Below, in pieces: positions 1,741-42,328 of a stretch of 64,000 nt of DNA. Made by a program: the position numbers and the translations under genes. Position 1 is the first letter of the stretch. Each line of letters begins with the position of its first letter. Source of the DNA: Hydrurus foetidus (taxonomy: Eukaryota); the NCBI GenBank assembly GCA_900617105.1, contig UYFQ01000510.1:1-64000 (forward strand), read 5' to 3'. Below the pieces are notes generated by a model. The model saw only the letters and a list, made by a program, of their open reading frames with translations. It did no database searches and had not been told where the DNA came from.

Positions 1741-1948
1741 TGTGGTCGTACCGGGTATACCGGGCCTACGGGCCGTACCGGACCTTGTCACGATCCACCC
1801 GATCCTTCCGCCTACAGTACATATACAGCCCTACCACGACTAGCTAGCTAGCTGCAGCCTACTCGTAGAAGTTACCTAGCTTCTAGCATAGTCTGTAACC
1901 TAAGCACCACCCGCTCTTCTACCCATCTTCTTCTCTATCAGGACTACA
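1741..1948 (+). repeat. Gypsy 5' LTR
   Basis: TGTGGTCGTA...GGACTACA; identical by eye to 8326-8533. Confidence 0.96.
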
Positions 1949-2504
1949 ATAGCGCTATTCGTCCGCCCTTTCTTCTACTACTTCTCAGTCCATCTACTTG
2001 TCCTCAACTTTTAGATAAGACTTCTGAGCGATCTATTGTCCGCCACGGCCGACTTCTCTTGCAGCTTTGAGCTCAGAGAACTTTAGTTTAAGTTAGAGAA
2101 AGTCAGCATACCTGCTTTCTTGGAATCCCTAAGCTTGGGCTCTTCCATTCTTTAAGTTTCCGGTCGAAGTCGAAAGATCCTTCCCGAGATTCATTAAAGA
2201 TCTGCTCTGACGGTCGATTGAATCACGGATTCATCACCGCTGACATAAGATTAGTCAAGAGACGTCTTCTTGTCGCTGGAAAGCAGCAGCATATACCTTA
2301 AAAGGTACCAACTTTTTCTACCACTCAAAATTTGGCTCTTAAGCCATTGGACTTTTCAGTCCAAGAGTTGGTTAGAATTCTCTAACGCGTTGTTACTGAC
2401 GTTACAGTACCCGTTAGCGAACAAGGCAAACCCCTTGCAAATTTTTTTGACAACGGGGGATTGATCTCTGCTGTGTTTAAGCGAGATACATATCTAGTAA
2501 CGAT

Positions 2505-4031
2505 ATGTCCGCCGCACCTCCATCTCCACCACCTCCTGATGAGGAGGAGATTGCTCGTCTCGCAGCGTTGGCTGCCCTCAATGAGACTATTCCAACCAAC
2601 AGCTCATTGTTTGGTAACAGCTCGCTGACGATGCAACTCCAGAGTGAGGTATTCGTGCTCAGACACAACTTCATTGATGAAGCTGATGCCATTGAGTTCT
2701 ACGAACAGGCTCAACGCAATCCCAACATGAAGTTGACGGACTGTATGCAGAAGCAGGCAATCGAACTATTGAACTTCAAAATCTTAGTCGACCCTGAATT
2801 CAACATCATTGATCGTCGACAACGTCATGATTGGTTCACCATATTATCGGTGACTCAGGTAGCCACTCTAGTAGTGAAGTACTTCTGCCCAAACGGTTTG
2901 GGGGAGTGTACTTTGGCAGAGAGTTTTAGCCAAATTCCCTTCCACTACCAGATCGCTAATCACGATCATGAGAATGCCACATTCATTCGTTACAATGAAC
3001 TTGTGAGCAACTATGAGAGGTCCAAGGGCCCTCTGACTATGACTCAGCATGCTGAGCTTATTCAGATCTTGGAGAAGCGCCTAGCTAAGGGTAGTCAAAT
3101 TCAACAAGACTACCTGAGAGCGAAAGCTGCTGACACCTCACCACCCAACACGGGGACATGGTTAAAGACTATGCTACGCATTGGTCAGGTTCTGGCCGAG
3201 GCTAGGTCGATGACGAACCTCATCAAGAGCTACGGCAACCCGGAGGTAGTGTACTCGTTCCCTTCATCGGCTATTCCGCCTGAGGTTGGTAAAAAAGAGA
3301 CAAGCAGAGCAAGTGTTAAGGCACCCTCACCTACTCCATCCGGGACGTCTAAGTCACTTACAACGACTGTGCGTACAACAGGCTCGTACATTCCGACTCA
3401 GCACGGACTCGCTGTCCGTGCGTCGACGGAAGTGCCGTTCGTACCGAACTTGCTAGCGTGCCGTTCGTGCGGGTCTAAGTCGCACATGTTGATTGACTGT
3501 CCCATCCTGTATTACTCCGACTCCAATACAGACCATTCGGCTGATTGGGAGGATTCTACATTGGGTATGGCTTGGGCAGCGGTAGGGTTTGCAGAATGGC
3601 AACAACATCTCGTACTCCCAGGGTACGAAGATCGCGTTCTGTTACTCCCTAAGGGTTCTAAACCCTACTTGATGTCTAACGACAACAAGCGCCCCAAAAA
3701 CAGCCATGGTGGCGGTAACAACCCCAATGCCTCTGGTGGTTCAGATCGTTCCAACCAGGGACAAGGGGGGTATAACCAAAACCAGGGGAACCAAGGTAAC
3801 CAGGGAGGTGGTTACCATGGCTCCCATGGAGGGGGTAGAGGTAAGCAGAGGGGAGGATACAACCCCAATGCAAACCAAAACCAGGGTCGTGGATCCGGTG
3901 GCAGGGGAAACAAATACAACCCCCCACAGGAAACAACCCTCCCTCCTCTTCCAGTTCAGGTCAGGATCAAGGTAAGAACCTTTATTCTGATGACGTGGCT
4001 GCTGTCTTTGACAATGATTCCCATAATCTGA
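2505..4031 (+). CDS. gag: Gypsy Gag with CCHC zinc knuckle and G/N/Q-rich C-terminal region (3' end probably frameshifted near 3920-3945)
   Basis: CRSCGSKSHMLIDC knuckle; GGYNQNQG/RGG low-complexity tract; located directly after the 5' LTR leader. Confidence 0.85.
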   Translation: MSAAPPSPPPPDEEEIARLAALAALNETIPTNSSLFGNSSLTMQLQSEVFVLRHNFIDEADAIEFYEQAQRNPNMKLTDCMQKQAIELLNFKILVDPEFNIIDRRQRHDWFTILSVTQVATLVVKYFCPNGLGECTLAESFSQIPFHYQIANHDHENATFIRYNELVSNYERSKGPLTMTQHAELIQILEKRLAKGSQIQQDYLRAKAADTSPPNTGTWLKTMLRIGQVLAEARSMTNLIKSYGNPEVVYSFPSSAIPPEVGKKETSRASVKAPSPTPSGTSKSLTTTVRTTGSYIPTQHGLAVRASTEVPFVPNLLACRSCGSKSHMLIDCPILYYSDSNTDHSADWEDSTLGMAWAAVGFAEWQQHLVLPGYEDRVLLLPKGSKPYLMSNDNKRPKNSHGGGNNPNASGGSDRSNQGQGGYNQNQGNQGNQGGGYHGSHGGGRGKQRGGYNPNANQNQGRGSGGRGNKYNPPQETTLPPLPVQVRIKVRTFILMTWLLSLTMIPII

Positions 4032-7000
4032 TGGATAGTCATGTTGAAGAACAGCCACATGTAACTATTCGTGAAGAATTTTTGCATAATCCATCTGTCC
4101 TTCCTTCTCATCACCTCAACGTAACTGTTATCGTGCAGGATAAGGATAGGACTGGCCCAGCAAGCGAGCTGCGTGCCGTTGGAAGAGCCGTGCTGGACAC
4201 CGCGAATTACTCGGAGGATTTTATTTCTTTTACATGTTAGAAAAATTAAATGCCACTCACCTTTGTTACCCCGCTCCTACAGCTATCACTGTTTGTAGCG
4301 GCCTCGATGGTCAATGTTATGTAAATAACGAAATTTGCGATTTAAAAATCCTTTTTCATTCTTACGATGGCGAATGCCAGAGCATCAGCTTACCCATGAG
4401 GGTTAATAGAAAAACCGAAATTGAAATTTTGTTTAGCCGTAAGACGGTAAATAAGTATGATTTTTGGTCTTTGACTCCGTTTGCTTTCGGCATATCGCCA
4501 GAACTTAGCGCGGAGAACAAAAAGAAAAGCGATGCGCGCAAACGCGACTTCGATAAGAAGGAAGCTTTGTTGAAACTTGATCCCATGTATCAACATAAGT
4601 ATACGCGTCAAATGATAGCGTTGGGTGCCGAACCAGATACAGCTGAAGTCGAGTCTATCACGCCTCATTATGACAAGCTGAAATATCCAGGCGGTAAACC
4701 TGCCTCTAAAAAGAGGGTTACATATGGAGTACAAGAGTACCCATATAAGAAGAGCGTTTTGCTTGGTCAATCTTCTTCGAAGAGCAACGTCTCCTGTGTC
4801 CATTCAATGTCGACATGTAACGATACCCAAAAGGATATTGAGGGAGTCGCGACCCAAAATTCCTGTGGTGATGTAAGTTGTGAGCGACTGAATAGTGTCA
4901 CTCCTATTCTCGCAAAACGTACGGGTGATACACCGCACCTAGGTGGCGACCAGATTCCCACCCTTACACATACCTTTGGGGATTCTGATACCCCCGACTA
5001 TGTCACTGAGCCTTTATGGCCCAGTGGTGTCGCACTCTCAGTTGACGAGATTGACGATGGCAAGATAGACACGTTCGCACCCTTCTTAGCTGAGAAACCT
5101 AGTCAAGATGACTTGCCCAAGGGGCCAGAGGATTTCCTCAACGAGATTACCTTTGAGGGAGATGAAAGCTTTCAGAGGAAGCTCCGAGAGCTCTGTTCTG
5201 AATATTCAGACATTTTTAGTGATCAGTTAGCTGAGAAACCAGCGTCACTCAAACCTTTTGAGATTAACATCCCCTTGAGTTGTGGGAAAAGACGAAAACC
5301 GTACGCCGGTACGTCCCCAGTCATCGACTAAGGAGGTTGCTCTTAAGGAGAATCTCGATGAGATGCTTGCGTCGGGAGTTATAGAGCGGTCAGATGCTGC
5401 TTATTACAGTCATCCTGTAATCGTAACTAAGTCACCCGGTAAATTTCGAACCTGCATCGATTACCGGCCACTTAATAAGTGCCTGACTCCCGCCTCTTTT
5501 CCCCTGCCGAATATCAAACATCTTTTTGAGAGGATCGGTAATAAAAAACCGGATATTTTTGGTGTGATGGATTTAACCGCGGGTTACCATCAAGCACCGT
5601 TACACCCCGCACACCGCATATTCACAGCGTTTATATGCTTTGCGGGGGTTTTCAGTTCACGAGACTGCCCTTTGGTCCGTGTCGTGCCCCTCTTACTTTC
5701 AAGAGCAGATGGTAACGGCGGTCCTCTATGGCCTTATCTATCATTGTTGTGAGATGTATCTCGACGATTGTATAGTATATGGCAAGGGTGAAGCAGAGTT
5801 TCTTAAGAACTTGAATAAAGTCTTTGAAAGATTCAGACTTAAGGGTCTTAGACTCAAAGCAAAAAAATGCCGCTTTGGTTTACCTCGTATTGAATACGTT
5901 GGCAGAGTGGTTGACAAAGATGGTTTATCCATGTCAAAAGAAAAAATAGAAACAGTATTAAACTTTTCTATACCTAAGAACTTAACTTTGTTAAGATCAT
6001 TCTTAGGATTGGCGAACTATTTTCGACAGTTTGTACCGATGCATTCAACTTTGGTTAAACCAATGCAAGATATGATAGATCATTCTGCACCGAAACGTTC
6101 GGCCGTTGTATGGACTCAAACGAGTACCAACAGCTTTCACGATACACAGATCGCAATATCTCGTTGTCCATTAATGTACTTCATTGATGACAATAAATTG
6201 GATATCCGATTATATACAGACGCGTCTGATTTTGGAATCGGCGGTGTCCTTTTCCAAGTGGTTGATACCATTTGGCAACCGATAGCTTTTATAAGCAAAT
6301 CATTGACACCAACACAAATACGGTGGTCAACTATACAGAAAGAAGCGTACGCTATATTCTACTGTTGTACACAACTCGATTACTTAATCAGAGATCGTAC
6401 ATTCACAATCTATACTGATCATTTGAATATCACGTATATGAAACAAAACCCTACCTCAATGGTAGCAAGATGGTTCATTGCTATGCAAGAACTTCATTTT
6501 ACGGTTGTCTTCGTACCTGGCACGTCAAATGCTTTAGCCGACGCATTGTCGCGATTATGTCCTAACTTGACAGAAATCGCATTACCGTTACGAATAACGG
6601 AATTGGAATTACTTCCAACTTCGTCGTCGTCGGTCACTGTGTCAGCTTTGACAGCTATCGACCCAGCGTCAGACGATCAATTAGAATACATCCAAATGTG
6701 CCACAATGCGTTTGTCGGTCACAACGGTGTAGATCGTACCCTTACTCGGTTGTTCAGTCTACAACAAGTTTGGAAAAACATGAAACAACATGTACGTACG
6801 TTCATACAGAACTGTCCGTGTTGTCAAAAGCTGAGCGCAAAAGATCCTAAGATCAATGCGTCTCACTTTGCTACGTCGAATTATGCTATCTTCGATACGC
6901 TGAATGTTGACTATATTGGTCCATTCCCAGACAAAGGTTATATCCTTGTCATTATCGACACGTTCACACGGTGGACTGAACTATTTTGGTGTGCAAATGC

Positions 7001-7754
7001 AGACGCAAAATCAGCGGCCGACTGCCTACTCTCTCATTTTGGCCGTTTCGGCTCGCCAAACATGATACGATCGGATCGAGGATCCCATTTCGCAAACGAT
7101 TTAGTAAAAGATTTTTTAGATCTTTGTGGTACGCCACATAATTTAACCCTCGCATACTCGAAAGAGGAAAATGCGATTGTTGAGAGAGTCAACAAAGAGG
7201 TAAATAGACACCTAAGAGGTCTTGTTTTTGATAAGCAGACCCTAGAGGGATATGCTAAGTCAATCCCGTTTGTGCAACGCATCATTAACAGTTCAGTTAA
7301 TAGACGCACTAAAGTTGCGCCCGCACATTTACTGTTCGGAAACAAGCTTGACTTGAATCGTGGTATTTTAACACCACACTTAAGTGTGAATACACATTCT
7401 AGATCAACATACATTGAGGACTTAATCAGCGTTCAGGACAAGGTCCTCGATTCAGCTGTTCAAGCTTTAATGTCAGCAGACGCTAAACACGCGGCATCAG
7501 CTAAGTGTGCGACAGTGTTCCCTATAGGGACATATGTTTTATGTCGTTACACGGATCGACCGCCTACTCGGTTACACACTACGTGGCATGGCCCGTACCG
7601 TGTCATCTCCTACAAAGGATCCGAGTATATCCTCGCAAACCTTGTTACACACAAAGAACGAAGTGTACATATTAAAAATTTAAAATTTTTAATTATGATT
7701 CAGAGGTCGATGTACCTGCTGACACTGCTCGTCGTGACTACATGGAATTTGTAG
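3995..7754 (+). CDS. pol: Gypsy Pol (protease, RT, RNase H, integrase) split by several frameshifts
   Basis: AVLDTA protease-like motif; CIDYRPLN, DLTAGYHQ and YLDD (5757-5768); TDASD, KEAYA and ADALSR; integrase H-H-C-C, SDRGSHF, ERVN and WHGPY. Confidence 0.92.
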
Positions 7755-8005
7755 TAGAAAAGGTTCTTAGCCACTCAGGTGACAAAAAGAAGCCTACGAC
7801 AATGTCATTCAAAGTCAAATGGCTTAATTATGATGACACTCATAATTCATGGGAGCCGTGGAAAAATCTACGGCTTTGTGAAGCACTCCATGAATACTTG
7901 AGGGACAATAAAATGAAACATTTTATCCCCAAAGCACTCCATGAATACTTGAGGGACAATAAAATGAAGCATTTTATCCCCAAGAATCTTGAGGCATCAG
8001 TCTAA
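7742..8005 (+). CDS. Chromodomain at the integrase C-terminus (frameshifted from pol), ending in a 51-bp tandem duplication
   Basis: FVVEKVLSH...FKVKWLNYDDTHNSWEPWKNL is a typical chromodomain; ALHEYLRDNKMKHFIPK occurs twice. Confidence 0.9.
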   Translation: MEFVVEKVLSHSGDKKKPTTMSFKVKWLNYDDTHNSWEPWKNLRLCEALHEYLRDNKMKHFIPKALHEYLRDNKMKHFIPKNLEASV

Positions 8006-8302
8006 GAAGACTGATCTCGAACGTATTATCTTTTGAAGATTTTTCCTAATTTTCCCTCTATGGAGGTTTTATGGTTTTAGTCAGTAAAAATCTGACATAA
8101 TTACGTATCGAGGCCTCGGGCACATGTACTTACGTACTAGGCACCACTTTTCTCGTCGACCGACCCACCACCGTTTACATTTTGTAAATATTTTTATTAT
8201 ATTTTTCATTTTAGTTTTCGTTAAATTTTCTTTTCCTTTCTTAGTTATTATTAGTTATTATATTTTTAAACGTGGTGGTCGCGTCATAGATTAGATTTCT
8301 CC

Positions 8303-8325
8303 AAAAAAGAGATAAGTGGGGGAAA
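8303..8325 (+). other. Polypurine tract of the Gypsy element
   Basis: AAAAAAGAGATAAGTGGGGGAAA immediately 5' of the 3' LTR. Confidence 0.85.
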
Positions 8326-8533
8326 TGTGGTCGTACCGGGTATACCGGGCCTACGGGCCGTACCGGACCTTGTCACGATCCACCCGATCCTTCCGCCTAC
8401 AGTACATATACAGCCCTACCACGACTAGCTAGCTAGCTGCAGCCTACTCGTAGAAGTTACCTAGCTTCTAGCATAGTCTGTAACCTAAGCACCACCCGCT
8501 CTTCTACCCATCTTCTTCTCTATCAGGACTACA
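8326..8533 (+). repeat. Gypsy 3' LTR
   Basis: Identical to 1741-1948. Confidence 0.96.
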
Positions 8534-9136: not shown

Positions 9137-9271
9137 GATGCGAGTGGTTGCACTCTGCGGAGTCAACCACAAGACAAGCAATTGAACCCTGATCGAGATG
9201 GGGCGGCACCAGGTGCGGGCGAAGACCCAGGGAAATATGAGGGGTTTATAAAGGGAGATGATTTGGCTTTA

Positions 9272-9559
9272 CCGCACGTGCAGCGGCCATCTGAGAAAGG
9301 CACCTGGAGAGATCCTTCTTCGACATCTGCCCACATGCAGACACCTGATGGGGAGGAATTAACGAGGGGGCACGGCATGATGCTTGCCCACATGCAGGAA
9401 TTGATCGGAGTCCATTCACAGTTAGAGTCCGACGAGGTGTTGGTCCACATGCGAACACCCGGTGAAATAAAGGGATCTGATATGATGACTGCCCACATGC
9501 AGTCATCCAGCAGACATGAAGGGGGGACTCCTCTCGAGACATTGCCCGCCTACATGCGG
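9272..9559 (+). repeat. Six regularly spaced copies of a ~12-nt motif (consensus GCCCACATGCAG) with dissimilar spacers
   Basis: Copies start at 9272, 9329, 9386, 9443, 9491 and 9548 (spacing 57, 57, 57, 48, 57 nt); encode xHMQ/R in the pol frame. Confidence 0.75.
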
Positions 9560-9831
9560 TCACTAGAGGAGGAGAGCAATCTAAAGTGCACAGAGGCGGC
9601 TTCCATACGTGAGATAATGGCCACCATGGCATCGTATTTTGCACCAGGGGAAGTGTTCCCGTTCGCGGAACTTGTCGAAACCGTCAAGGATGCGCAGGAT
9701 ATGGCAGCCACAAACTATGGTGTGACTGAAGCTGTAGAGTGGGCGCAGGGGTACGAATTTCCGGAGGACATGCTTACGAATGACCTGAAGTCTTTCAAAG
9801 AAGCAAATTATGACTTCACGGATATGGTGAA

Positions 9832-9937
9832 AGTGTGACACTGCATTGGGCTCTCTAGGTCGGCGTCTCTCCAGACTACAAAAGCTTTTGTAGTCTGGAG
9901 AGACGCCGACTTAGAGAGCCCAATGCAGTGTCACACT
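9832..9937. repeat. 106-bp loopless palindrome (53-bp arms, one mismatch)
   Basis: AGTGTGACACTGCATTGGGCTCTC...CAAAAG|CTTTTG...GAGAGCCCAATGCAGTGTCACACT, centred between 9884 and 9885. Confidence 0.95.
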
Positions 9938-10112
9938 GCTCCCACTCATCTTCCCCTCGAAGAAGGTGTCTCACGGCTCTTGCCTGTGCAGATCACAAAT
10001 AAGGCCCACATGGAGAGTTGAACCCGCGACTCTTGTCTGTGGAACCGCGGGCACATGGGACCGAAGCTCTACCAAGTGTACAAGAAACGTTTCTTAAACG
10101 TTATAGTGTACA
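9834..10112. mobile_element. 279-bp non-autonomous insertion (solo-LTR-like or MITE-like) with TG..CA ends and AAAG target-site duplication
   Basis: AAAG at 9830-9833 and 10113-10116; ends TGTGACACT / AGTGTACA; removal restores the RT frame. Confidence 0.85.
10005..10080 (-). promoter_or_regulatory. tRNA-like RNA polymerase III internal promoter (A and B boxes)
   Basis: Minus strand TGGTAGAGC (10074-10066), then GTCGCGGGTTCAACTC about 40 nt later (~10030-10015); no full cloverleaf evident. Confidence 0.55.
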
Positions 10113-11951
10113 AAAGCTAGATTGACATCATTGCAGTCTAGCCGGCTGAATCTGAGGCGCATCAGTAGATTGACATCCGATAACCCGGAACTTGGGCTGC
10201 TGCGTGACTTAGCCGTGGGAATGCGTGTCCCTATACCGATTGGCTTCAAACCAAATGGTTCAGGCGCGTTGACACCGCTCAGTGCCTCTTATCTTAAGGT
10301 CCATAAAGCGGTGAATAAGATGGTAGCTGAGACTGTGTCAAGTGGTCTAGGGTTTCTGTTGCCGAAAGATCTAGCTATAGAGACCATCCCTAGGCTTCAC
10401 CTGTGCACCGCCCACTGGGCACAGAAGAAGGGCAAGAAATCCGGACGACCAATATGGGACATGACGTACGTGGATGGAACAGCGCTCAACACTGAAGAAG
10501 CTACCAAGGAAGCGGAGGAATACTATGGGCCCATCCATCATCCAACCATAGATGACATAGCAGTCATGATAATGGATTTCTTCACGGCGCATGGGGCGAA
10601 CCACTCTGGAAAAGAATGGAGCGATCTGAGAATATGGAAAATGGATTTGAAAGGAGCATATACTCTCCTGTCGTTCCGACCAAACGATGTCAGCCTCTTC
10701 GGCATGGAAGTAACAGGCGACCTGATCTACTTACAACTATGTGGTATATTTGGTTGGGCATGCACACCAGCAGCGTTCCAGATCGTGACAAGGGCATTAA
10801 AATGAGAGTTTGGCCGAGCTCTTAGGAGCTCTACGGAGACGTACGTGGACGACGTAATAGGCGTGTGCTTCGAATCTGACTTGACATCTGATATGGCACT
10901 CGCCAAGGACATCTGCACTAGCCTTCTGGGGCCCAATGCAGTGGCCGATGAAAAGTCCGAGACAGGGAGACGACTCGAAGTCATAGGCTACACAATCGAC
11001 TTGACCCTAAAACTAGTTTCAATCGCGCGGAAGAACTTTCTCACAGCGGTTCACGGCTTTATGGCTATTGACTTGGACGGCAGAACTTCCTTGAAGACCA
11101 TGCAAAAGTTGGCATCATGGGGTAGTCGATATGGACGCATCTGTCGACTCATGCGTCCCTTCTGCGGAGCGCTGAATAGGGCGATTGCAGGCAGGCTAGA
11201 TCGCCACGCGACATTTAGTCTCGCGGAAGAAACGAAAATAGCCATCAGATGCTGGTGAGCAATCTTATTCCTCGTTCGCTACAACGAGCAACGATTCACT
11301 CGACCCCTCGCATCATTCAAAAGTGGTGTGGCAGAGTACATTGTCGAGACGGATGCATCACTGCACGGGGCAGGATGCCTCATCTATCGACGGAACCGCG
11401 ACTCGGAGGTATGTGAAGGGGCCAGTGCGGTAGATCTCCGATCACTCGGCTTCACGACTGAGTCAAGATTTCAGAATGTGCGCGAGTTCATCGGCTCGAT
11501 AGTTGGAATACTGGGGTTAGTGAGATTAGGTGTAAAGAATGTGTAAAGAAATTTGCGGAGATAGGATATCTGCACTCACGTGGGCTCAGAAAGAGAAAAC
11601 CCGTGGGATGCAGGTATCGAACGCAGCGATGGTGTACACTCTAGTCTGCGTGTCATACGGCATAGAGGCCAAGTTTGCGACTCATATCTCTGGGGAGGCG
11701 AACTTTCGATGTGACCAGCTCTCGAGAGTATCAGAGTCGGGAAGGACGGTAGACGAAGTCTTAGTGGGTCTAGGGTTGGGAGGGGCACAGAATCTTAAAC
11801 TGGATCAGGACAGTCGGGTGCTACAGCTGATAGAGAGCTGTCGCCCTTGCGAGCCTTTTAAAAATGAAATCGACTTCATAACATTTTGGCATAGGATAGT
11901 CGAGACCATAGCCTCATAGACATCCACATCGCACTAACATCCTCATCCACT

Positions 11952-13782: not shown

Positions 13783-16700
13783 ATGCCTCCAAAACGTGCA
13801 GTAGAATCAAAGGATGTGCCAGAATGCATTCTACGCATCGGCAAGTACAACAACGTTGTAGCATGGAACCTAGAGATGCGTTCCGTTGTTGGCACCCTGT
13901 ACGGGACAATGTGGGATACGTCCCGCCCTATCCCAGGGAGGAGGACTACATGCCGATCAATCCAGACCTAGCTGACGGGCAGGCACCCCCGTCATACCAG
14001 CAGCGCTCATAACGAAGCTTAGAGAGGACTGTTTTACCGGTAGGCGCAAGGACATAGCGCTACAGCGTAAGGACGAACAGAAGATCTGGTCGAACATGTG
14101 GACACGAATGTCACCCGCGTCGCAAAGCAAAGTCCAAGAAGAGCCAGGCTACGCGAACGCTCTACTCGCACGAGACTGCGTAATGCTGTGGGAGTTCATC
14201 AGGCGCACTCATCTTACTCACATCTACGGAGATGGTGATCCGATGCTGGCTCTGAACATCCAAGACCAGGAACAACGATACAATGCTATCAAACAAGGGG
14301 ACAAAGAGTATGTCTCCAACTTCAAGCTGCGATTCGACGCACAGGTACAAGCGTGTTTAGGTGCGGGGGTGACCAACGTCACTGAACCGAAGCGCGCACT
14401 GGACTTCATATATAAATTGGACCCAAAGAGATTTGGAAAGATGTTGGCGTTCATGAGGAATAACGCGCTGGTTATGGAAGGAGAAGCATTCCCGCAGACC
14501 CTAGGGGCCGCATGCCGCATAGCATCCGGATGGGTAAACGAGGATACCGGTGGACCCCAGATCCCCGGATTTGAAACCCACGCTGCGTTCGTCGCTGAAA
14601 CAGAATCAAACCTGGTAGCAAAGTCCAAGGACCATGAAAAGGGAAAACGAAGTACGACTAAAGGAGACACAACTCCAAAGAAGAAATCATCAACGGATGT
14701 GGAATGCTTCGTGTGTGGCGAACTCGGCCACTACGCGCGAGACTGCCCGGCAAAGAAGAGTTCAGCGCGCGTCCTCGTCGCAGCAGCAGAGGCTGAGAAC
14801 GGAAAACGATATGGAGAATCCGACGATGAAGAAGAATATTGTGACGAAGTTGCCTACATCACGTCCAGCGAAACGGTGTTGTTCTCCCGAGACGATGTGC
14901 TACTTGATAGTCAGGCGTCGGTCAACGTATTCTGCAACGAGAAGCTTCTGCGCAACGTGAGGAAATCAGAGAAGCGAGTCGTGCTTAATGGAGTCCAGGC
15001 GAGAGCCGATGGGGTAGTCATCAATCTAGAAGGAGAATTCGGTGATGTCGGAAAGGTATATTTCAGCAAAGACTCTACGGCGAATATCTTATCCTACGCG
15101 GTTATGGTCGACCAAGGCAACGACATCAGTTACGATAAGATTAACGACCTATTCCTACTGAAAGCACTAGGAAGCTCGAAGGTATATTCGTTCAGCAGAA
15201 AGCAAGTGAGCGGCAGCGGAGGCCGGTTCTACTGCTGTAACGTCAAATCAATGACGAGCACTCAAGACACATCAAACACTGTAGAAGAGCTCGCGTTGAT
15301 CGAAACGATTGCAGACAACATGCAGAAGTATTCGAAGAGAGAGGTCGAGGGAGCGGATCACGCACGACGACTACTCAGCAAAATGAGATTCCCGTCAATC
15401 AGCCAAGCGATAGACATCATCACACGAGGAAGGAACTTCGACGTGACGGCCAGAGATTTCTTAGTGGCGGATGCAATTTATGGGAAAGATATCGCGTCAT
15501 TGAAAGGAAAAACAACTAAGAAAGCAACGAAGGTGGCTGACATTACAGTGGGCGCAGCAATCGTACAGCAAGAGCAAGTGCTGTCAGTTGACATAATGTT
15601 CGTCGACGGGGTCGCGTCGCTAATCGGGTTGGCAACCCCGCTAGACCTAACCATGGCCGTCTCACTCCTATCGTTCGATACGCTCCAGAGCTCAAGATCA
15701 GCAGTTGCGGTGAAGAAAGGACTCGAAGGATTCATGTCTACATTATCATCAAGGAATTTCGTTATACGTCTGTTTATGAGTGATGGCGAAGGAGCCGTAG
15801 GAGCTATCAAGGATGACCTGAATCTTCTCGGCATAGAAGTCGACGTAAGCGGGGCAGGCGGCCACGTCGCGAGAAGCGAACGAAGGATCAGAACTGTGAA
15901 GGAGCGTGTGAGAGCATATATGTCTCATGAGCTGCCGTTCTCCCTCACTGCGGTTGGAATAGCTATGCTGGTTTTATTCTGTGCCTCGAGGATCAACTAT
16001 CAGACTTCCGAATCGAGGTGAGGTGACGAATGTCCACGAGTAGCTTTCAGCGGTAGACAAGTAGATGCGCTGCTCGACTATAGAATCGGATTCGGGCAGT
16101 ATGCGCAATGCACCGTGGCGAACACAGACCGATCGATGTCTGCTAGAACAGAGGACTGTCTAGCTATGCTACCAACTGAAAACAGAACAGGTTCTGTAAA
16201 AATGATGTCAATCGGTACGGGCAAACTAGTCACACGGGACCAATTCATCATCCTTCCTATGCCCACGTCTGTGATCAACAGATTAAATGAGATGGCTGCA
16301 TCAGAAGGTAGGAAGATCGTCATCAGGAGCGACATGGTGTATGATACAGAAAGCGGATTACGGAAAGCGGACGATCCCACCTACAACAGTAAGATTTACG
16401 GTAGACCAGGAGATTACGGCCAACGGGGTAGATATGGGAGAGGTCTTCGTACCGCCTCAATACTCTTCACCAAATCATCAGAATCTCGCGGACGATGGTG
16501 GACTTGGAGCGGCACACGCCATAGACAATGCCAACGAGAGCTATTTCGACATTCCGGATTTGGATGTTGGTCCGTTGGTAGAATTCGAGCAGTATGTAGA
16601 ACCCAACGCCAATCCAGATGCCTCTATACTGGTGTCACCACCAAGGACTGCTGTCACCCCTACTTACTCGAGATACAATACAACTGCAGAGCCGATCCAG

Positions 16701-18404
16701 TCTGTGAGACAGGATCTGATGGACTATTATAACAACAGCGATGTGCAGACTACTGCCCTTATTGCGCACGAACAGGTGGAGCATCTAATAGAGCACGCTA
16801 TGAACATTACGGTGAAGGAAGCACTGAGAAGTAGGGGTGCCGAAGCTGAAAGGGTAATCCTGAAGGAGCTATCTCAGATGGTAGATAAGAAGGTGTGGAC
16901 ACCCGTACAACTGAAGAAACTTACGAACACAGAAAAAAGGGGAATCGTTCGCTCGCAGATGTTTTTGAAGGAAAAATACCTTCCAACCGGAGTGTTCGAG
17001 AAGCTTAAAGCTAGACTAGTAGTGGGAGGAAATCAGCAGGATAAGGATCTATATGACGACCTCTCTTCCCCAACTGTCTCGACATGTGCGGTGATGACTA
17101 CCTTTGCTATAGCGGCGTATGAAAAGAGACATGTCTCTGTAGTGGACATTACGGGTGCATATCTGAATGCGGACATGAATACAGGAATCATTGTATACAT
17201 GCGTCTCGATCAAACTATGTCGTCAATGGTATGCAAGATCAACAAGACGTACGGAGAGTACCTGGACGACAAGGGGTGTATAGTCGTACGCCTCGACAAA
17301 GCCCTATACGGGTGCGTTGAATCTGCGGCTCTATGGTACGAAAATCTGTCCGATGCGTTGAGTGCAGCTGGATATGTCAAGAACAGATATGAGATGTGTG
17401 TGTATAACAAGACGAATATAAAGGGGATCCAGTGTACGGTGGCGGTACATGTGGATGACCTCATCATATCTAGTATCGATAAGGGCATGATCGACTTCCT
17501 ATGCGAACACCTCCGCATAAGATATGGAATGATCACTCGAGCAGATGGTCCAGTAGTCAACTACCTAGGCATGGTATTCGACCTCACGGTCGCTGGAGAA
17601 GCAAGATTGACTATGAAGGGGTATGTCGAAGATACAATCACGTACGCGGGAGTTACGGGTACGGCTAAAAGCCCAGCAACAGACGGACTGTTTGAGATCA
17701 GGGAAGGTGCTGTGATGGCGAATGAAAAGATGAGAGTGTGGTTCCACAGCGTAGTCGCTAAACTAAGATACCTTGCTAAGCGGGCAAAACCGGAGTGTCT
17801 TACTGCGATAGCGTTCTTAGCCACCAGGGTCACGAAGTGTACTGAAGATGATCTGGAGAAACTAAGACGAGTACTGAGATACATTGCTGGAACGTGAGAC
17901 AACGGAGTCGTGTTCAGACCAGGGGTGTTAAGGATATGTGTGAGAGTATATGTGGATGCAGCATACGGGGTGCATGCTGACGGTAAGTCACACACCGGAA
18001 GTTGTGTCGCCATAGGAGATGTCGGGCCTGTCCATTGCAAGTCGAGTAAGCAGAGTATTGTGACGAAGTCTAGCACAGAAGCGGAGCTAGTAGCTCTATC
18101 AGACTCAGCTAACCAAGGTCTGTACTTGCGTAACTTCTTGAAGGATCAAGGATACAAGATGGGACCTATCGTGATATACCAAGACAACACATCCTGTATG
18201 GCTCTGGTAGACAGAGGAAGATCGGGAGCAGAAAGGACAAGGCACATAGGAATCAAGTACTTTTGGTTGAGCGAGAGGGTTACGAGAGGTGAAGCAGAGG
18301 TGCGACACAAAGGAACAAAGGAGATGTATGCTAACCTGCTTACTAAACCCCTACAGGGAGCACAGTTTCAGCACGAGAAGAAATTACTAACAGGTTGGCT
18401 GTAA
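13783..18404 (+). pseudogene. Copia 1 gag-pol polyprotein with stops (16019, 17895) and frameshifts
   Basis: Starts MPPKRAVES; colinear with the Copia 2 polyprotein; ORFs 14096, 16115, 16287, 17910. Confidence 0.9.
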
Positions 18405-18506
18405 TGCTAACGAAGGCGCCTGACGAATAGGATGATATGCGAGTGATACAACATACGATATCATAAAACGAGTGAAGTATAATCTATGCATACTATTCGA
18501 AATACT

Positions 18507-18817
18507 AGGATCTTTGGGTTCCGAGGTCGTGCACGAACGAGGTAGTACAGTACCGAAAGATCTCAGAGCCAAGGCTTGTAGAATAAGACAACCGTTGTCA
18601 GTAAATTCTTGTTAATTTGACTGTGATGCATCCTCATGACAACCACTAGTCTCTCTTGATGCATCCATGTCTATATATTCCTACACTACGCTTGAAGTAC
18701 AGAACAAATGCACAGGGTCCATACATCTCATTTACGCCACACAAATAGTCCGTACCGCCGTACGGAGCCATAAGTACACATATTGTGTTCGTGTCATAAA
18801 CTACGATACCTCCAACA
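18507..18817 (-). repeat. Copia 2 3' LTR, missing its last 6 nt
   Basis: Matches 23775-24085; terminal TGTTGG (plus strand) is absent. Confidence 0.93.
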
Positions 18818-18883
18818 CACCCCTATGCCACATCACAATTGTTACTATTCACGCATCAAACGTAAGACGTAATGAATAAAATT

Positions 18884-21800
18884 CTATACTATAATGTCGT
18901 CTTCCCACCCGGTGAGTCCATGTCTCTCTCACTTGAACTGGGCTCCTTGCAGAGGCTTTGTCAGGATGTTCGCATACATCTGCTTCGTCCCTAGGTGCTT
19001 CACCACCGCTTCTCCCATGTCGACTCGCTCCTTGAGCCAGAAGTACTTGATCGCAATGTGCCTGGTCCGTTCCGCCGCTGACCGCCCGCGCTCGATGAGA
19101 GACATGCACGACATGTTGTCTTGATACACTGTGACAGGCTCGCACGAGTGTCCTTGTCCTATAATGAAATTTCTCAAGTGTAGTGCTTGGTTAGATGAGT
19201 CAGACAAGGCCACCAGCTCCGCCTCGGTACTGGACTTGGTGACTATCTGCTGCTTCGCCGACTTGCAATGAACTGCACCCCTCTCTCCGACCACAACACA
19301 GCTTCCAGTGTGCGACTTGCCATCCGGGTGCACCCCGTATGCCGCATCGATCACCACGCTCAGCACTATCCCCTTGTTCCCTGGGGCGAACACCAGTCCT
19401 CTGTCTCGAGTACTGCACACGTACTTGAGTAGTCTCTCAAGTTTCACCAGGTCATCCACGCTACACTTGGTCACTCTCGTCGCCAGGAACGCCACCGCTG
19501 TAAGGAGGTCCGGCCTTGCACGCTTTGCCAAGTAGAGTAGCTTCGCAACGTGACGGTGGAATCGCACTCTCTGCTCATCCGTCGCCATGGCTGCGCACTC
19601 CCGAACATCAAACAGTCCTTCTGTGGCGGGTGTTCGCGCTCCTCCGACTGTCCCACTCTCCTTCAGCATGTCTCCCACATACCCGCTCATCGACACTCTC
19701 GCCATACCTGCTTTAGTCATGTCGAAAACCATACCTAGATAGTTAACCACAGGTCCATCTTTGCGAGTGATGTCTCCATACTTCTTAGTCAATCCCGCGG
19801 CTAGTGACTCGATCATGCTACTGCTGATACTAGTGATCATTAGGTCATCTACATGGACTGCACCCCGTATTCATCGTGTTTGTTAAACACACAGATGTCG
19901 TGAGTGTTCGGCACGTATCCCAGCTGTGACAGACTCTCTCGCAAGTTCTCGTACCATAACGCCGCTGATTCCACACACCCATACAGTGCCTTGTCCAAAC
20001 GCACCACGACGCACCCCTTATGATCTGCGTACTCCGAGTACTCCGGTGCAAGCTTGATCATCATGTTGGTCATGTTCTTATCTAGCCTCATGTGCACCGC
20101 AAGTCCCGTCGTCATGTCGGCGTTAAGGTAGGCTCCGCTTATGTCAATAGCAGTGATACTTCGTTTCTCATACGCCGCTATGCATAGTAGAGTAAAGACG
20201 GAGCTTGTCCCGACAGTTGGTGCCGATAGATCATCATACAGTGTCTTGTCTTGCTGATCGCCTCCAGCGACCAGTCTTGCCTTTAATTTCTCAAACTCAC
20301 CACTGGCGAGAAACTTCTCCTTCAAATACATGCTTGAACGGATGATCCTGTACTTCTCGTCTCGAGACAGACCTCTGAGGTCAACCGGTGTCCACACCTT
20401 CTTACTAATCATCTGTGTGAGCTCTTTCTCTATCACACTCACGGCTGCGTCGCCTCTTGTCCGTAGTGCTTCATTCACGGAGATGTTCAACACATGATCA
20501 CCCCAGTCCACTCCGTCACCATCATAGTTCCGAGTCAGTAGTGCAGCTCCACCTTTGCCGTTCCTGAAATAGTTCATGAAATCTTGGCTAGTGACTCGAG
20601 GGTGACGCGGGACATCACTGTTCTTCTCTGCTGAATCGATGTTCGTGCTACCTGTATCGTCCTCCCCTGCGTCTACGCCGTCCACCGCTGTGTAGTCCAC
20701 AGGCACGCCTTGTGCATCGTGTGTTTCTTCGCTGTCCTCTTCTCGAACAAATCTTCCTGCATCCATGCTTTTGAAACTGTTGATGAGTTCTTCCATGTCG
20801 CTCAGCTTCTGTTTCGCAGGCACATTCAATGGAACGATCGCATCGTCGCAATAGGTAGACTGGTTCAGGTCTGGGAGGTAGTCTGTTACATCGTTTCCTT
20901 CCTCCTGCTGCTCATCCGGAGTATCGTTGACGACATCAGTACGGTCATCGCTTTCGAGTACTGCTACCGAAGGGTCTATTCCGTTGTTCACAGTGATTTC
21001 TATCGTGTCAGACAGTCCTCTCTTGGCATCACTGTCCTGCATGTAAGATATCGGTCTGGTCTCTAAATCCCCTTTTCCCTTCACTCTCCCATCCGCTAGT
21101 GCGAGTTCATTCAGTCGCTTGATTACAGACTCCGGCATGGGTAGTATTTGGAACTGATCGCGATTGACTAGTCTCCCAGTTCCCAGCGATAGCATTCTCA
21201 CAGTACCAGTTCTGTTCCCCAGAGGGAGCATAACCACGCAGTCCTCGGTTCTTGATCTTAGTGTGCTATCTGTGTTTGGCACAGTACATTGCGCGTAGTC
21301 GCCGAATGAGCATCTAAAATCTCGCTTCCCATCTGGCTTCCTTCCAATAAAAGCTTCTCACGGGGTGGGGCCCGATTCCCGTAAACCACCCGGCTCATAG
21401 TTCAGCCTTGATACGCAGTACAGTACGCACATCGAGATACCCACGGTCGATAAAGTAAAAGGTAGATGATGTGCGACGTGCGCTCGTACTCTCTCCTTAA
21501 TTACACGAATCTTTCTCTCCATTCTAGCAACGTGTCCTCCGGCACCGCTAATGTCTACTTCCACGCCGAGCCTCCCCAGCTCGTCGACAAGGCTGACGAC
21601 TGCTCCCTCTCCGTCGCTCATGATCACGGACGTCCGAAAATTCTGTGATGCGAGCACCGCCAAGAAATGATTGATTCCCTTCCTGACTTCTGCTGCCGCC
21701 CTCGATGACTTCTTCGACACGATGTTATTCAAACTGTATGCGATAGTTAGACCAAGAGGAGTTGCAACCCCGATTAGTATAGCCAGCTTTTCAATAAACA

Positions 21801-23743
21801 TAATATCGATTGATAGCACCTGATCTCTTTGAACAATCTTGGTGCTGACTGTGATGTCAGCTGCGTCTGTCGATCTCTTGACTGTCTTTCCTTTTACGGA
21901 AGCGATGTCTTACGGAAGCGATAGCATTCTCACAGTACCAGTTCTGTTCCCCAGAGGGAGCGTCGGCAATCTGGAAGTCCCTAGCAGTAATCTCGAAGTT
22001 GCTCCCAGTATTGACGATCGACATGGCCTGTTCCACTGTTGGAAATCCCATTCGTGCTAACATCTCGCGGGCTCGTCGAGCCTGCTCAATCTCTCTCTTA
22101 CTGAAGGCTCTGGAATTCGCTGCTACCGTTGTCACTAGGGCAGTATCTGCGTCGACCTCTCGCCAGTCGCACGAGTAAAAGCGACCCTCACTTCCTTCAA
22201 TCTGTTTCCTCCCGAATCGGTAAGTCCGCTCGCTACCCTTCGGCTGTAGAGTGAAATAGTCTCTCTCGTTATCGTAATTGATAGTGGCTCCCGCATCCTT
22301 CTGTGACGCGAAGGATAAGATGTTGGCCGAAGCCGATCCACTGTAGAACACAGTGCCGAGCTCCCTGAAATCTCCTTCACGGTCGACTGTCACGCTGGTA
22401 CCCAGCTGAATACCGCCGACTTGAATGGACCTTTCCGCTTTCCTTATCCCGGTAAGTAACTCAGCGTTGTTGAAAATGTTTAACGAAGCCTCGTTGTCTA
22501 GAAGGACGTCATAACGAGAGAAGCAGCATTTCTCACCCGACGCTACAAGTGCTAGCCCCCACTCATCTTGCTCACTCAGATCTTCATCGTTTGGTTCCTC
22601 CACCGTTACGTGGGCTTTGGCCGATGACGATTTCGATTTCCTTTGTGGGCAGTCTCGTGCATAGTGGCCCATCTCCTCACACAGGAAACATTCTACTACA
22701 GTTAACGGTTTCTTCTTGGCCCCACCGGTCTTCCCCGCTTTCTTCTCAGGAGGGTCCTTAGATGCGGTGACGAGTGCGCTGTCTGTAACGTATGCAGCGT
22801 TCGGAGCACCGGGTGTGGGTGTGTACGGGGCGGCATCTCCGCCGCTCCAGCGGGATGCTATACGGTATGCGGCAGGGAGGGTCTTAGGGAATGCCTCCGG
22901 ATTACGGCGAAGCGCGTCGTTCTTCATGTTGTCGAGCATCCTCTTGTATCGTCGGGGGTCGAGTTTTCCTAGGAAGTTAAGTGCGCGCTTTGAGGCAGTC
23001 ACCGGCGCCATTCCCACAGCGTTATTGGCTGACACTTGTTCGTCGAATCTGAGCTTGAATGAAGTGATCAGTTCTCTCTCGCCTTATCTCATCGACGTGT
23101 ACTTACTCTCTTGTAGGTGTTGGTTGAGCTCCTGCATAGGGTCACCGTCGCAGAACATGTGAGTGAGGTGGGTCTTCCTGATCAGTGTCCATAACAGGAC
23201 GCAGTCAAGGGTCATGTATGCCTCTTCATAGTCGTCCTCCTCTCTAACTCTGCTCTGTGATTCGAGTGACATTCTCTTCCACATCATAGGGTACATCGTA
23301 CGTTCGTTCGCGTATTGTATTTTGATGTCCCGCTTCCTCTGTATGTAATCGTCTTCTTTGAACTTTGTCCTAGACCTTTCAGACAATTTTATCTTTCTTT
23401 TTCTTCTCACCGCCCTAGCCTGACTACGCGCTGCCTTTTCAGCGGCGTAAACTGCGAGTACCGCAGGGTCCTGGGCTGGTAGTTCTTCTTCAGCATCCGT
23501 AGGCTCTACTTCGTCTGCTGAGCTTTCGCTCTCCGACGATGAATCATAGGGATAATCCCTGTATGAAACTCTCGGAAGAACGTATCTCTCATTCGTGGTG
23601 AAGAACATCCCAATGATACCGTAGAGTTCGGTGATGATTGTCTGCATATGTTCTTTCCATTTGATGATGTTGTTTGATTTGCCGTATTGCAGTATACACT
23701 CATCTGGAGCTTTCAACGCTTCTACGGCACGTTTTGGAGGCAT
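18884..23743 (-). pseudogene. Copia 2 gag-pol polyprotein with stops (23084, 21358, 18929) and indels (~21910, ~19855)
   Basis: MPPKRAVEA start; CFLCEEMGHYARDC; LLDNEAS; SDGE; KARLVAGG; ANILTKPL. Confidence 0.9.
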
Positions 23744-23768
23744 TGAAATGCCGATGCCAGTCAAATTA

Positions 23769-24085
23769 TGTTGGAGGATCTTTGGGTTCCGAGGTCGTGC
23801 ACGAACGAGGTAGTACAGCACCGAAAGATCTCAGAGCCAAGGCTTGTAGAATAAGACAACCGTTGTCAGTAAATACTTGTTAATTTGACTGTGATGCATC
23901 CTCATGACAACCACTAGTCTCTCTTGATGCATCCATGTCTATATATTCCTACACTACGCTTGAAGTACAGAACAAATGCACAGGGTCCATACATCTCATT
24001 TACGCCACACAAATAGTCCGTACCGCCGTACGGAGCCATAAGTACACATATTGTGTTCGTGTCATAAACTACGATACCTCCAACA
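23769..24085 (-). repeat. Copia 2 5' LTR (317 bp)
   Basis: TGTTGGAGG...CCTCCAACA terminal inverted repeats; TATA-like sequence near 23940. Confidence 0.95.
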
Positions 24086-24212: not shown

Positions 24213-27200
24213 ATGGCCAGTCTATTGAAGATATTCGTATGGCTGATGACTTCATGGTCAACCATGTCTAAAATCGATATTGGAAGGAATTCGCACCACA
24301 CCTCGACTTTTGATCGCACAGCGCCACAAGAGACAACAATGGAAAAAGCTCTCAACGGAGACAGTTTTCGAAAAAGCAACATTAGAGCTGATGATGGTAG
24401 GCGATGAATTGTTGACAAAAAAATATATGATCGTAGAATGATTACCCTGCCACATTTCCCTCCTACTTTACTATCAATGAACTAGAAAGAATGACTTACA
24501 CAATTTGAATCCATAAATCGTTTCACATAGCAGGCAGTCGTCGTGGGTTGATGACAACCTACTATCCCATTGGCGTGCAATACAATACGACACTTTCCTT
24601 CATCAACAGCTATTGCACACCGTGCCTGTACGTCGACTATTATCAGGCCACCAAGTCTACCGACATTTTTGGATGCAGAGGACCTTATCTATTCGTTGGT
24701 GCCATAAAGAAGGGAAAGAGTGTATTTCAATTAGGTGGCTTCAGTCCGGTTGATGTGATTCGCTCTACAACCCTTCTTAATTCACCGGCTCTCTCGAATG
24801 GTATATACTGGTACTTTACTAGCGGTCACTCTTTCGGGTTCGCAGATAGTCCCACTATCAATCAGAACTACGCCGATTCAGCTATCAATCCTGACCCTTT
24901 CTCCCGACTCTCATGGCTGATTGATTCAACTGCTGGTGGCGACCGCGCAGGGACCTCACTACATGTCAAGAGCGGGGAATTCTTCAAGGTTATCTACAAC
25001 TGCCCTGAGAAATATCAAAATTCCCGTCTTCTGTCAGAGCTGCCGTTCCAACCAGCATATGCTCCAACCTATGTTCTAACAAATACTTCATCAACGCCCA
25101 CAACTCAACCTAGTCAAAAATCAAGTGGCAAACCGACAGGACAGCCAACAAATAAACCCTCTGGACAGCCAACCAATGTGCCAATAGCCCAGACCACGAT
25201 GCAGATTACGGAACAGCCGACCTCATTGCCAACAGGGCGGCCAACGATGCAGCATACTGGTCAGCCAACGGTGCGACCGACGGGACAGCAGACTTCACTG
25301 CCAGTACCGACAATTAAACACACTGCTCGACCTACTGGTCAGCCAACGATGCAGCCCACCGATCAGTCGATAGAGCAGCTTACGGGGCGGCCTAACGTTC
25401 GTCCAACAGGCCAGCCAACATCTTCACCAACGGGAAAGCCGACATCTCTTCCAACAAGTATACCGACAAGTCATCCGACATCACTTCCAACAAGTATGCC
25501 GACAGGTCATCCCACCGGTCAACCGACGACGGAACCCACATCTTCGCCGTCTGGTCAGCCTACGATGCAACCTACTGGTCAGCCGACTGGAAAGCCGACA
25601 TCCTTACCGACAGGACAGCCGACATCTGTACCGACAACGCCATCAGGACAACCGACAGGACAACCCTCTGGTCAGCCATCAGGACTACCAACAGGTCTAC
25701 CGACGACGCAGCCTACAGGAGAGCCCACCTCACTGCCAACGAGCCTGCCGACATCTCTACCGACTGGAAAGCCGACATCTCTACCGACATCTTCACCAAC
25801 GAGAAAGCCGACAGGTCTACCGACAAGCATACCGACGTCACTTCCAACAAGTATACCGACAAGCATACCGACAAGTCATCCGACGTCACTTCCAACAAGT
25901 ATGCCGACAGGTCATCCCACCGGTCAACCGACGACGGAACCCACATCTTCGCCGTCTGGTCAGCCTACGATGCAACCTACTGGTCAGCCGACTGGAAAGC
26001 CGACATCCTTACAGACAGGACAGCCGACATCTGTACCGACAACGCCATCAGGACAACCGACAGGACAACCCTCTGGTCAGCCATCAGGACTACCAACAGG
26101 TCTACCGACGACGCAGCCTACAGGAGAGCCCACCTCACTGCCAACGAGCCTGCCGACATCTCTACCGACTGGAAAGCCGACATCTCTACCGACATCTTCA
26201 CCAACGAGAAAGCCGACAGATCTACCGACAAGCATACCGACGTCACTTCCAACAAGTATACCGACAAGCATACCGACAAGTCATCCGACGTCACTTCCAA
26301 CAAGTATGCCGACAGGTCATCCCACCGGTCAACCGACGACGGAACCCACATCTTCGCCGTCTGGTCAGCCTACGATGCAACCTACTGGTCAGCCGACTGG
26401 AAAGCCGACATCCTTACCGACAGGACAGCCGACATCTGTACCGACAACGCCATCAGGACAACCGACAGGACAACCCTCTGGTCAGCCATCAGGACTACCA
26501 ACAGGTCTACCGACGACGCAGCCTACAGGAGAGCCCACCTCACTGCCAACGAGCCTGCCGACATCTCTACCGACTGGAAAGCCGACAGGTCTACCGACAA
26601 GCATACCGACGTCACTTCCAACAAGTATACCGACAAGCATACCGACAAGTCATCCGACGTCACTTCCAACAAGTATGCCGACAGGTCATCCCACCGGTCA
26701 TCCGACGACGGAACCCACATCTTCGCCGTCTGGTCAGCCTACGATGCAACCTACTGGTCAGCCGACTGGAAAGCCGACATCCTTACCGACAGGACAGCCG
26801 ACATCTGTACCGACAACGCCATCAGGACAACCGACAGGACAACCCTCTGGTCAGCCATCAGGACTACCAACAGGTCTACCGACGACGCAGCCTACAGGAG
26901 AGCCCACCTCACTGCCAACGAGCCTGCCGACATCTCTACCGACAAGCATACCGACAGGTCAACCGACATCTACACCGACAAGCATACCGACGTCACTTCC
27001 AACAAGTATACCGACAAGCATACCGACAAGTCATCCGACATCACTTCCAACAAGTATGCCGACAGGTCATCCCACCGGTCAACCGACGACGGAACCCACA
27101 TCTTCGCCGTCTGGTCAGCCTACGATGCAACCTACTGGTCAGCCGACTGGAAAGCCGACATCCTTACCGACAGGACAGCCGACATCTGTACCGACAACGC

Positions 27201-41821: not shown

Positions 41822-41990
41822 GGCTACAATTCACGGGAACGCTAAAAAGTTTTCCCATATAATTATTTTATGGTAAGGTTCGAAATTTACCCTAAACTAC
41901 CCCTTTTTATGGGAAAGTTTCCCTTTTTCCGCATATTTTATGACAAAAAATTATATGGGAGACTTTTTAGCGTTCCCGTGAATTGTAGCC
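41822..41990. mobile_element. PIF/Harbinger (Tourist-like) MITE, 169 bp
   Basis: ~43-bp terminal inverted repeats GGCTACAATTCACGGGAACGCTAAAAAGT.. with one mismatch; TAA duplicated at 41819-41821 and 41991-41993. Confidence 0.9.
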
Positions 41991-42328
41991 TAAAAGAGGT
42001 GGAGACGAAGGAGTTCCATCGAGATCTGCAGAATCCGTGTTTTGGGTGATATTCGTGATATAATTCTCAACAGTGGAGTAGTGTGGAGTGTGGCATTGGC
42101 CACAACCCCCACCCCCACAACTGTTTCGAGACCAAGATCAAGATAATATAAGACTCAGGCACTTCAGCAGCGCTCTATATTGGATCTATCTCCAGAAGCA
42201 GAATCTGCATGGAATGCGGTGTTTGTGAGCCTCGAGACTGTTGAATAAAATCACTTTACCGCCCATTGAAACGTTACGAAATTCATAATTCCTTCCTGTT
42301 TCCTCCGAAGTCCAAAATTTCCTGGGAA

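Follow-up and report, generated by a model that had tools for sequence, protein, structure and literature searches.

A 279-bp insert at positions 9834-10112, which starts with TG (9834) and ends with CA (10112), interrupts a retroelement reading frame in the 64-kb window, that is, in the whole stretch of 64,000 nucleotides analysed here. Our best explanation, which we hold with moderate confidence, is that the insert belongs to a multi-copy non-coding mobile element in which an LTR-like unit with tRNA-type A and B boxes is followed by an 8-bp palindrome and then by the last 47 bp of the same unit in inverted form, and that this element probably moves by means of the reverse transcriptase (RT) and integrase of a Gypsy element. 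The identity of the element as LTR-type and Gypsy-dependent is probable, and recurrent priming by its own RNA is proposed tentatively, as a model.

Results

A clean insertion into the pol frame of a YR retroelement

The window is eukaryotic and nested transposons are abundant in it. It contains an exon of deoxyhypusine synthase (91% identity to an Ochromonas protein, 74-79% to other named chrysophyte proteins), which makes a golden alga the likely host. Also present are an open frame of 3,410 codons that encodes a REJ domain and a long tract of Pro/Thr repeats (24509-34741), and a 181-bp MITE-like element with 40-bp arms that are 90% complementary (41816-41996).

The insert splits the plus-strand pol open reading frame of a tyrosine-recombinase (YR) retroelement into a 5' part (9137-9833) and a 3' part (10117-10805); RT motifs follow and, downstream of these, an HSLR motif, which we take to be of the recombinase type. 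Three copies of a 13-21-bp motif, with spacings of 57 and 105 bp, lie in the 5' region of the YR pol (9320-9503). The initial annotation had placed the insert within the RT; it sits in the pol frame, some 175 codons ahead of the RT motif KMDLK and outside the RT core.

Removal of 283 bp realigned the flanking pol frames and restored the reading frame exactly. When 120 homologous proteins were compared, 111 aligned on both sides of the insert, with residues adjacent across the gap in 109 of these and offsets of 8 and -5 (by simple arithmetic) in the other two. We also aligned contigs of four runs from four studies, out of 20 runs with matches, namely 76 contigs from X1, 14 from X3, 16 from X7 and 4 from X11. 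The empty site was present in contigs of X1, X7 and X11 (three studies), which skip the stretch between 9831 and 10116 and have 221-255 letters on their shorter side; no empty-site contig was found among those of X3. Because homologues are contiguous across the insert and empty-site contigs come from three studies, the insertion is real and clean. The interrupted YR copy differs from its paralogues by about 1% (7 differences in 641 letters against X1).

The letters AAAG flank the insert directly on the plus strand, on the left (9830-9833), where they form a candidate target site duplication (TSD), and on the right (10113-10116). However, all three empty-site contigs have a G between 9831 and 10116, which makes the paralogues AAGG at the position of the two AAAG copies in the window. 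The AAAG repeat can be a 4-bp TSD only if the interrupted copy had first undergone a silent, private G>A change; otherwise it is no TSD. Of the original description as a clean insertion with an AAAG TSD, the clean insertion and the AAAG on both sides therefore stand, whereas the 4-bp TSD, and integrase action at 9834-10112, are uncertain. The filled right junction (10108-10115) was covered by no contig of X1, X3, X7 or X11 beyond the empty-site contig, which does not signify absence since contigs drop variants.

On the right flank, positions 10113-10118 are identical to the first six letters of the palindromic spacer described below, a 6-mer with a frequency of 3.4e-4 in the window. As had been noticed before, this is part of a 10-mer shared by the palindrome centre and the right junction (9877-9886 equals 10109-10118). 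The 6-bp match may be due to chance, to a preference for certain targets or to capture aided by homology, of which Tf1 offers an example (PMC11042837).

The left end is a loopless hairpin

We confirmed that the left 102 bp of the insert are two inverted 47-bp TG..CA units (9834-9880 and 9889-9935) around the 8-bp palindrome AAAGCTTT (9881-9888). The unit at 9889-9935, on the minus strand, is a U5-like arm that is conserved across diverged subfamilies. Its counterpart at 9834-9880, on the plus strand, is an inverted copy of this U5-like end of the LTR-like unit and supplies the element's left TG end. The spacer between them, found in pieces of X1, X3, X7 and X11, lies at the position of a primer-binding site (PBS), a role that it may serve. 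Pairing of the arms spans 53 bp on each side (9832-9937, a 106-bp palindrome) with a single mismatch (G9858/T9911), and elsewhere in the window no inverted pairing with up to one mismatch exceeds 12 bp. The hairpin folds with z = -13, and folding of the body is unremarkable (z = -1.8). Since contig depth at 9911 is mostly that of the base that makes the arms perfect, the mismatch in the window is probably private. Matches of the hairpin to miRNA precursors in Rfam were all below the gathering score and reflect the stem only. A retrozyme was also considered and dropped, as no ribozyme family was matched in Rfam.

The right end holds an imperfect hairpin (10077-10112) with a 14-bp perfect palindrome (10082-10095), and it differs in other copies. 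The main X3 contig departs from the window's sequence after 10095, which indicates that the right end varies, and its next letters would stretch the 14-bp palindrome to 20 bp, again in the order CA-palindrome-TG.

The LTR-like unit carries tRNA-derived promoter boxes

Read on the minus strand from 10112 to 9889, the insert contains a 224-bp TG..CA unit that is LTR-like, tRNA-cored and Helenus-like. The whole 279 bp had initially been interpreted as a solo LTR, which is not supported, since 55 bp (spacer and inverted arm) lie between the CA end of this 224-bp unit and the left repeat. By contrast, the A and B boxes announced on the minus strand are present. The B box and T arm (GGTTC) at 10014-10024 are the window's top match to a tRNA profile, albeit a weak one (E = 0.4), and the A box and D arm at 10065-10083 imply tRNA position +1 at 10090. 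For the D arm we used a weight matrix derived from 96 viral-contig tRNAs selected on the basis of their T arm. Over the 88 nt that lie upstream of the B box, the matrix had its optimum at 10083, above the median score of the 96 tRNAs, and scores as high were reached at 8 of 127,962 sites in the window and in 8 of 1,828 comparable windows. Among 5,000 shuffles of the body, 1% had a B box preceded by a loosely defined A box. The A box has YGG and lacks TRGCY. Canonical A-to-B spacing is about 45 nt; the 60 nt found here fit a lost intron or a long variable arm.

A tRNA gene was rejected, as ARAGORN called none down to a threshold of 85% and Rfam yielded none at E up to 10; with no cloverleaf from either program, the promoter boxes alone remain. 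The earlier proposal of a non-autonomous LTR-type element with a tRNA-derived promoter is supported. We also rejected a tRNA-derived SINE (SINE2). The hallmarks of SINE2 elements are an A-rich or simple-repeat tail at the 3' end and a long, variable TSD; the 3' end here is an inverted arm ending in CA and the flanking repeat is 4 bp.

The sense strand has a single T4 run, located in the hairpin centre (9880-9883, minus strand), which is a predicted Pol III stop. A Pol III transcript would therefore probably stop before the second arm, which renders doubtful the idea that the hairpin transcript is a source of siRNA; dsRNA could form only if transcription read through the stop or if the element around the insert were itself transcribed.

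The hairpin is a trait of the family

Among the matches listed (29 of 118 pieces and 21 of 44 loose ends), the hairpin centre was found in at least five pieces and in all four runs (X1 record 2, X3 record 13, X7 records 23 and 24, X11 record 9). The X3 piece, a contig of 66 nt, had no differences from the window and started exactly at 9834. Only X1 record 2 had 31 letters on both sides of the centre (with 10 gap letters) among the five centre-holding pieces listed; the others end 9-15 letters past the centre, those of X3 and X11 at exactly 15, as would be expected of a perfect palindrome in a 31-mer assembly. The 76 contigs of X1 fall into four identity classes, with one variant letter common to 17 of them, and at least one contig is a centre-deleted variant (about 9873-9908). 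Given the centre in contigs of four studies, beside a centre-deleted variant, the hairpin is a family trait and not an accident at 9834-10112.

At the loose ends before 9832, a conserved arm seems to adjoin diverged bodies, one of which aligns by eye with the body in the window. Arm-only forms, which end at CA without the mirror copy, are represented by loose ends after 9881 in X1 and, with identical letters in both runs, after 9885 in X1 and X3. By eye, the first letters of the loose end at 9885 match the site following the Gypsy LTR in 7 of 8 positions. The summed depth of the body relative to the YR flank was 43-88x in X1 and 2-7x in X3 and X7, values that are not copy numbers. Rough contig-depth arithmetic, in which depths again do not stand for copy numbers, put the hairpin share of arm-bearing forms at about 0.1 (X1) to about 0.5 (X3). 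One X1 contig, with 31 letters on its short side, joins 9886 to 10090 on the opposite strand; 10090 is tRNA position +1, and the joint would correspond to head-to-tail units that begin there. An X3 contig (record 16) matches the tRNA core only (10005-10075), both of its sides being different, and may represent a related family or a source RNA gene.

No second copy of the insert was found within the 64-kb window, none was recovered complete with its flanks, and pattern scans for further copies returned none in viral contigs and none in genome contigs. Scans of metagenome contigs returned none and then 17 matches that ended at 19-23 bp, which we took as chance.

The inner end resembles that of a Gypsy LTR

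The window contains a Gypsy element (1741-8533) whose 208-bp LTRs are identical and which appears to be nested in the YR element; in this Gypsy a 12-bp palindrome replaces the tRNA PBS. A short tandem duplication (7885-7984) ends its pol/chromodomain region, as judged by eye. The 5' LTR and the palindrome at the PBS position (1948-1959) together occupy 1741-1959 on the plus strand, and the element stands here for a candidate helper lineage. The palindrome includes the last A of the LTR, and no TGG follows the LTR. Since only 32 perfect palindromes of at least 12 bp exist in the window, one at the exact post-LTR spot is unlikely to be there by chance. No Tf1-type perfect match of the Gypsy PBS site to its own LTR was found (best 8 of 11), and a search for Gypsy relatives with LTRs returned one 320-bp scrap.

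The CA end of the LTR-like unit matched the Gypsy LTR end in the window at 12 of 15 positions, compared with 7 of 15 for the Copia LTR end. Without the last three letters, this U5-like end matched the Gypsy LTR end at 9 of 12 positions (p ~4e-4, post hoc). Beyond the end, no alignment between the body and the Gypsy LTR was obtained (local score 15, with 233 of 300 shuffles as good). Two Copia-like elements face each other at 13976-24085, with a 311-bp repeat at 18507 and 23775.

A tentative model of self-priming

We speculated that the hairpin arises by recurrent self-priming, a possibility that we regard as tentative. Pol III would start near 10090-10104 and stop at the T4 just past the CA end of the LTR-like unit, and the resulting RNA would end in a self-complementary tail through which two RNAs could pair tail to tail. 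Each paired 3' end would then sit at the position of a tRNA primer and would prime minus-strand DNA exactly at TG. Second-strand synthesis might continue into the primer RNA and copy 47 nt, giving the loopless hairpin; if the primer were removed instead, the arm-only form would result. Integrase would act on the TG..CA end at 9834 and on the opposite end. A priming site of its own is guaranteed in the hairpin form alone, which would allow a single LTR to recycle. In the fullest version of this model, which is slightly less likely, the element would be a self-sufficient single-LTR retroelement in which the terminator of the Pol III RNA also serves as primer, in a tail-to-tail dimer, and each cycle restores the hairpin through copying of that primer. 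Such an element would be a parasite of Gypsy elements in a chrysophyte, of a lineage in which priming, too, takes place at a palindrome and not with a tRNA. Identical DNA would also result if two cDNA ends had on one occasion been joined tail to tail at the same site.

A tail dimer is predicted (-6.7 to -8.5 kcal/mol), which speaks for self-priming. Against it, the dimer is weak and folds of the whole RNA leave the tail free or pair it with the RNA's 5' end. In addition, no purine tract adjoins either end of the insert, the two purine runs of at least 8 both being internal (near 9950-9966), so that the model leaves second-strand priming unexplained. Nor does it rebuild the right end, because the outermost 8-22 bp (to 10112) would be missing from a Pol III transcript. 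Finally, the T4 run may not stop Pol III in the host; yeast Pol III needs T runs longer than T4.

Alternative explanations

The insert could instead be a MITE moved by a Ginger-like transposase, that is, one of the Gypsy-integrase type, although we regard this as unlikely. The 102-bp palindrome, which alone has TG..CA ends with 47-bp terminal inverted repeats (TIRs), would be a perfect-TIR element that took up a tRNA-derived neighbour via a look-alike end at 10112, the promoter boxes being passengers. Consistent with this, the two outer ends of the insert have a common imperfect 9-bp repeat, and Ginger elements have TGTNR ends, TIRs of 40-270 bp and 4-bp TSDs (PMC2836005). However, the TIRs of the 279-bp element are imperfect and only about 9 bp long, the 40-270-bp range being reached by the 102-bp palindrome alone; the left end TGTGA fits TGTNR but the right end TGTAC does not, and the target is neither CCGG/CCGT nor RTATAY. 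Moreover, all 11 X1 contigs at 9938 continue into the body, arm-only forms that end at the inner CA exist, and it is the inner end, not the outer, that resembles the Gypsy LTR end.

We assign a similarly low probability to an ordinary two-LTR TRIM family of the Helenus type, in which the hairpin arose once by accident (by joining of cDNA ends at the primer site or by a template switch) and multiplied passively or as a dead-end subfamily, with no new priming mechanism. By rough count arm-only forms look like the majority in X1, the 9885 loose end common to X1 and X3 could be a normal junction of 5' LTR and leader, and solo LTRs are common in Helenus (PMC10886601). Yet the hairpin form occurs in all four studies and is perfect in X3; in the window it has outer ends of its own and lies within a YR copy that differs from its paralogues by about 1%, an indication that the hairpin form itself moves.

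For this particular site, integrase-free capture is conceivable but improbable. An unprocessed cDNA (9832-10115) would have replaced one G at a break, aided by the match between target and spacer, and the AAAG repeat would not be a TSD. Tf1 does insert without integrase at PBS-like sequence, but the homology of Tf1 adjoins the U5 end and truncation is assumed for the other end, whereas the insert has its homology at the end opposite to U5 and has TG..CA termini (PMC11042837). In favour of capture, the joint reads as 284 letters replacing one G in comparison with all three empty-site contigs, the arm pairing reaches 2 bp beyond TG, and the 6-bp match is rare.

A fold-back confined to 9834-10112 and formed during integration, as the initial annotation had envisaged, or a library or assembly chimera, against which it had cautioned in case of a single copy lacking independent support, is very improbable: palindromes are common chimeras and the centre's first six letters equal the right flank, yet the centre is found in contigs of all four runs and studies, with the YR element empty at the site in three, a centre-deleted variant exists, the arms differ at one base and the frame is restored exactly.

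Discussion

Our preferred explanation, a Gypsy-dependent LTR-type element with a hairpin end, would extend the tRNA-promoter LTR parasites, which have been described for fungi, animals and a clubmoss (PMC10886601), to a stramenopile, the host being likely a chrysophyte. Its 210-nt RNA would provide a small and direct test case for the start of reverse transcription in LTR elements that have a palindrome instead of a tRNA primer site. If the plain reading alone holds, the result is a new Helenus-like family with an odd subfamily. Searches of the open-access literature returned no element of this architecture, although a family of such shape could exist in Repbase or in subscription journals.

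The insert resembles Helenus/TRIMp3 elements in being a short non-coding TG..CA unit with tRNA-derived A and B boxes that do not form a working tRNA, and 4 bp is the TSD class linked to Gypsy in Helenus (PMC10886601). Promoter-only tRNA remnants are described for Helenus (PMC10886601), and the words of the insert's D arm and T arm occur 24 and 11 times, respectively, in the Helenus consensus file (PMC10886601 supplement). Its A box, however, lacks the TRGCY motif of most Helenus (PMC10886601). Helenus elements have two direct LTRs, whereas the insert is one unit with no direct repeat of it within the window. In place of a tRNA-complementary PBS it has the 8-bp palindrome followed by its own inverted U5 end, and it lacks the polypurine tract that precedes the 3' LTR in Helenus. 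The TG..CA ends agree; where Helenus has a TSD of 4-5 bp, the insert has AAAG on both sides and its empty paralogues have AAGG. The main text of the Helenus paper makes no mention of palindromes, hairpins, inverted structures, stramenopiles or oomycetes, and a search of its supplement did not find the 8-bp spacer (PMC10886601). Cassandra, to which the insert had initially been compared, likewise has a Pol III promoter inside the LTR, but this is 5S-derived, and Cassandra has two LTRs and occurs in land plants (PMC10886601); the comparison is apt as regards a Pol III promoter in an LTR, and Helenus, with its tRNA-derived promoter, is the closer parallel.

For the palindrome, the fungal GalEa Copia elements offer a parallel. 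Their 'Conserved Hairpin Site' is a palindrome after the 5' LTR, in place of the PBS, that includes the LTR's last A, as does the palindrome of the Gypsy element in the window, and their priming mechanism was left open (PMC5445492). GalEa elements differ from the insert in being autonomous Copia elements without a Pol III promoter and in having a 9-bp stem with a loop of 12-41 nt, compared with a loopless stem of 51 bp (PMC5445492). The proposed cycle resembles that of Tf1 in that the element's own RNA, not a tRNA, would act as primer (PMC5445492), and in Tf1 homology to the PBS can steer insertion (PMC11042837). Tf1 has two LTRs and primes with the 5' end of its RNA after cleavage, whereas the primer proposed here would be the 3' end of a Pol III RNA. 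Ginger elements share TGT..ACA ends and a TIR range that fits the 47-bp arms, and their 4-bp TSDs compare with the candidate AAAG duplication, but in the insert the long inverted repeats stand together at one end and not at both, and the target motif and right end do not fit (PMC2836005). Taken together, the insert is Helenus-like in its promoter and Gypsy-parasite-like in its ends, and structurally it is not a Helenus.
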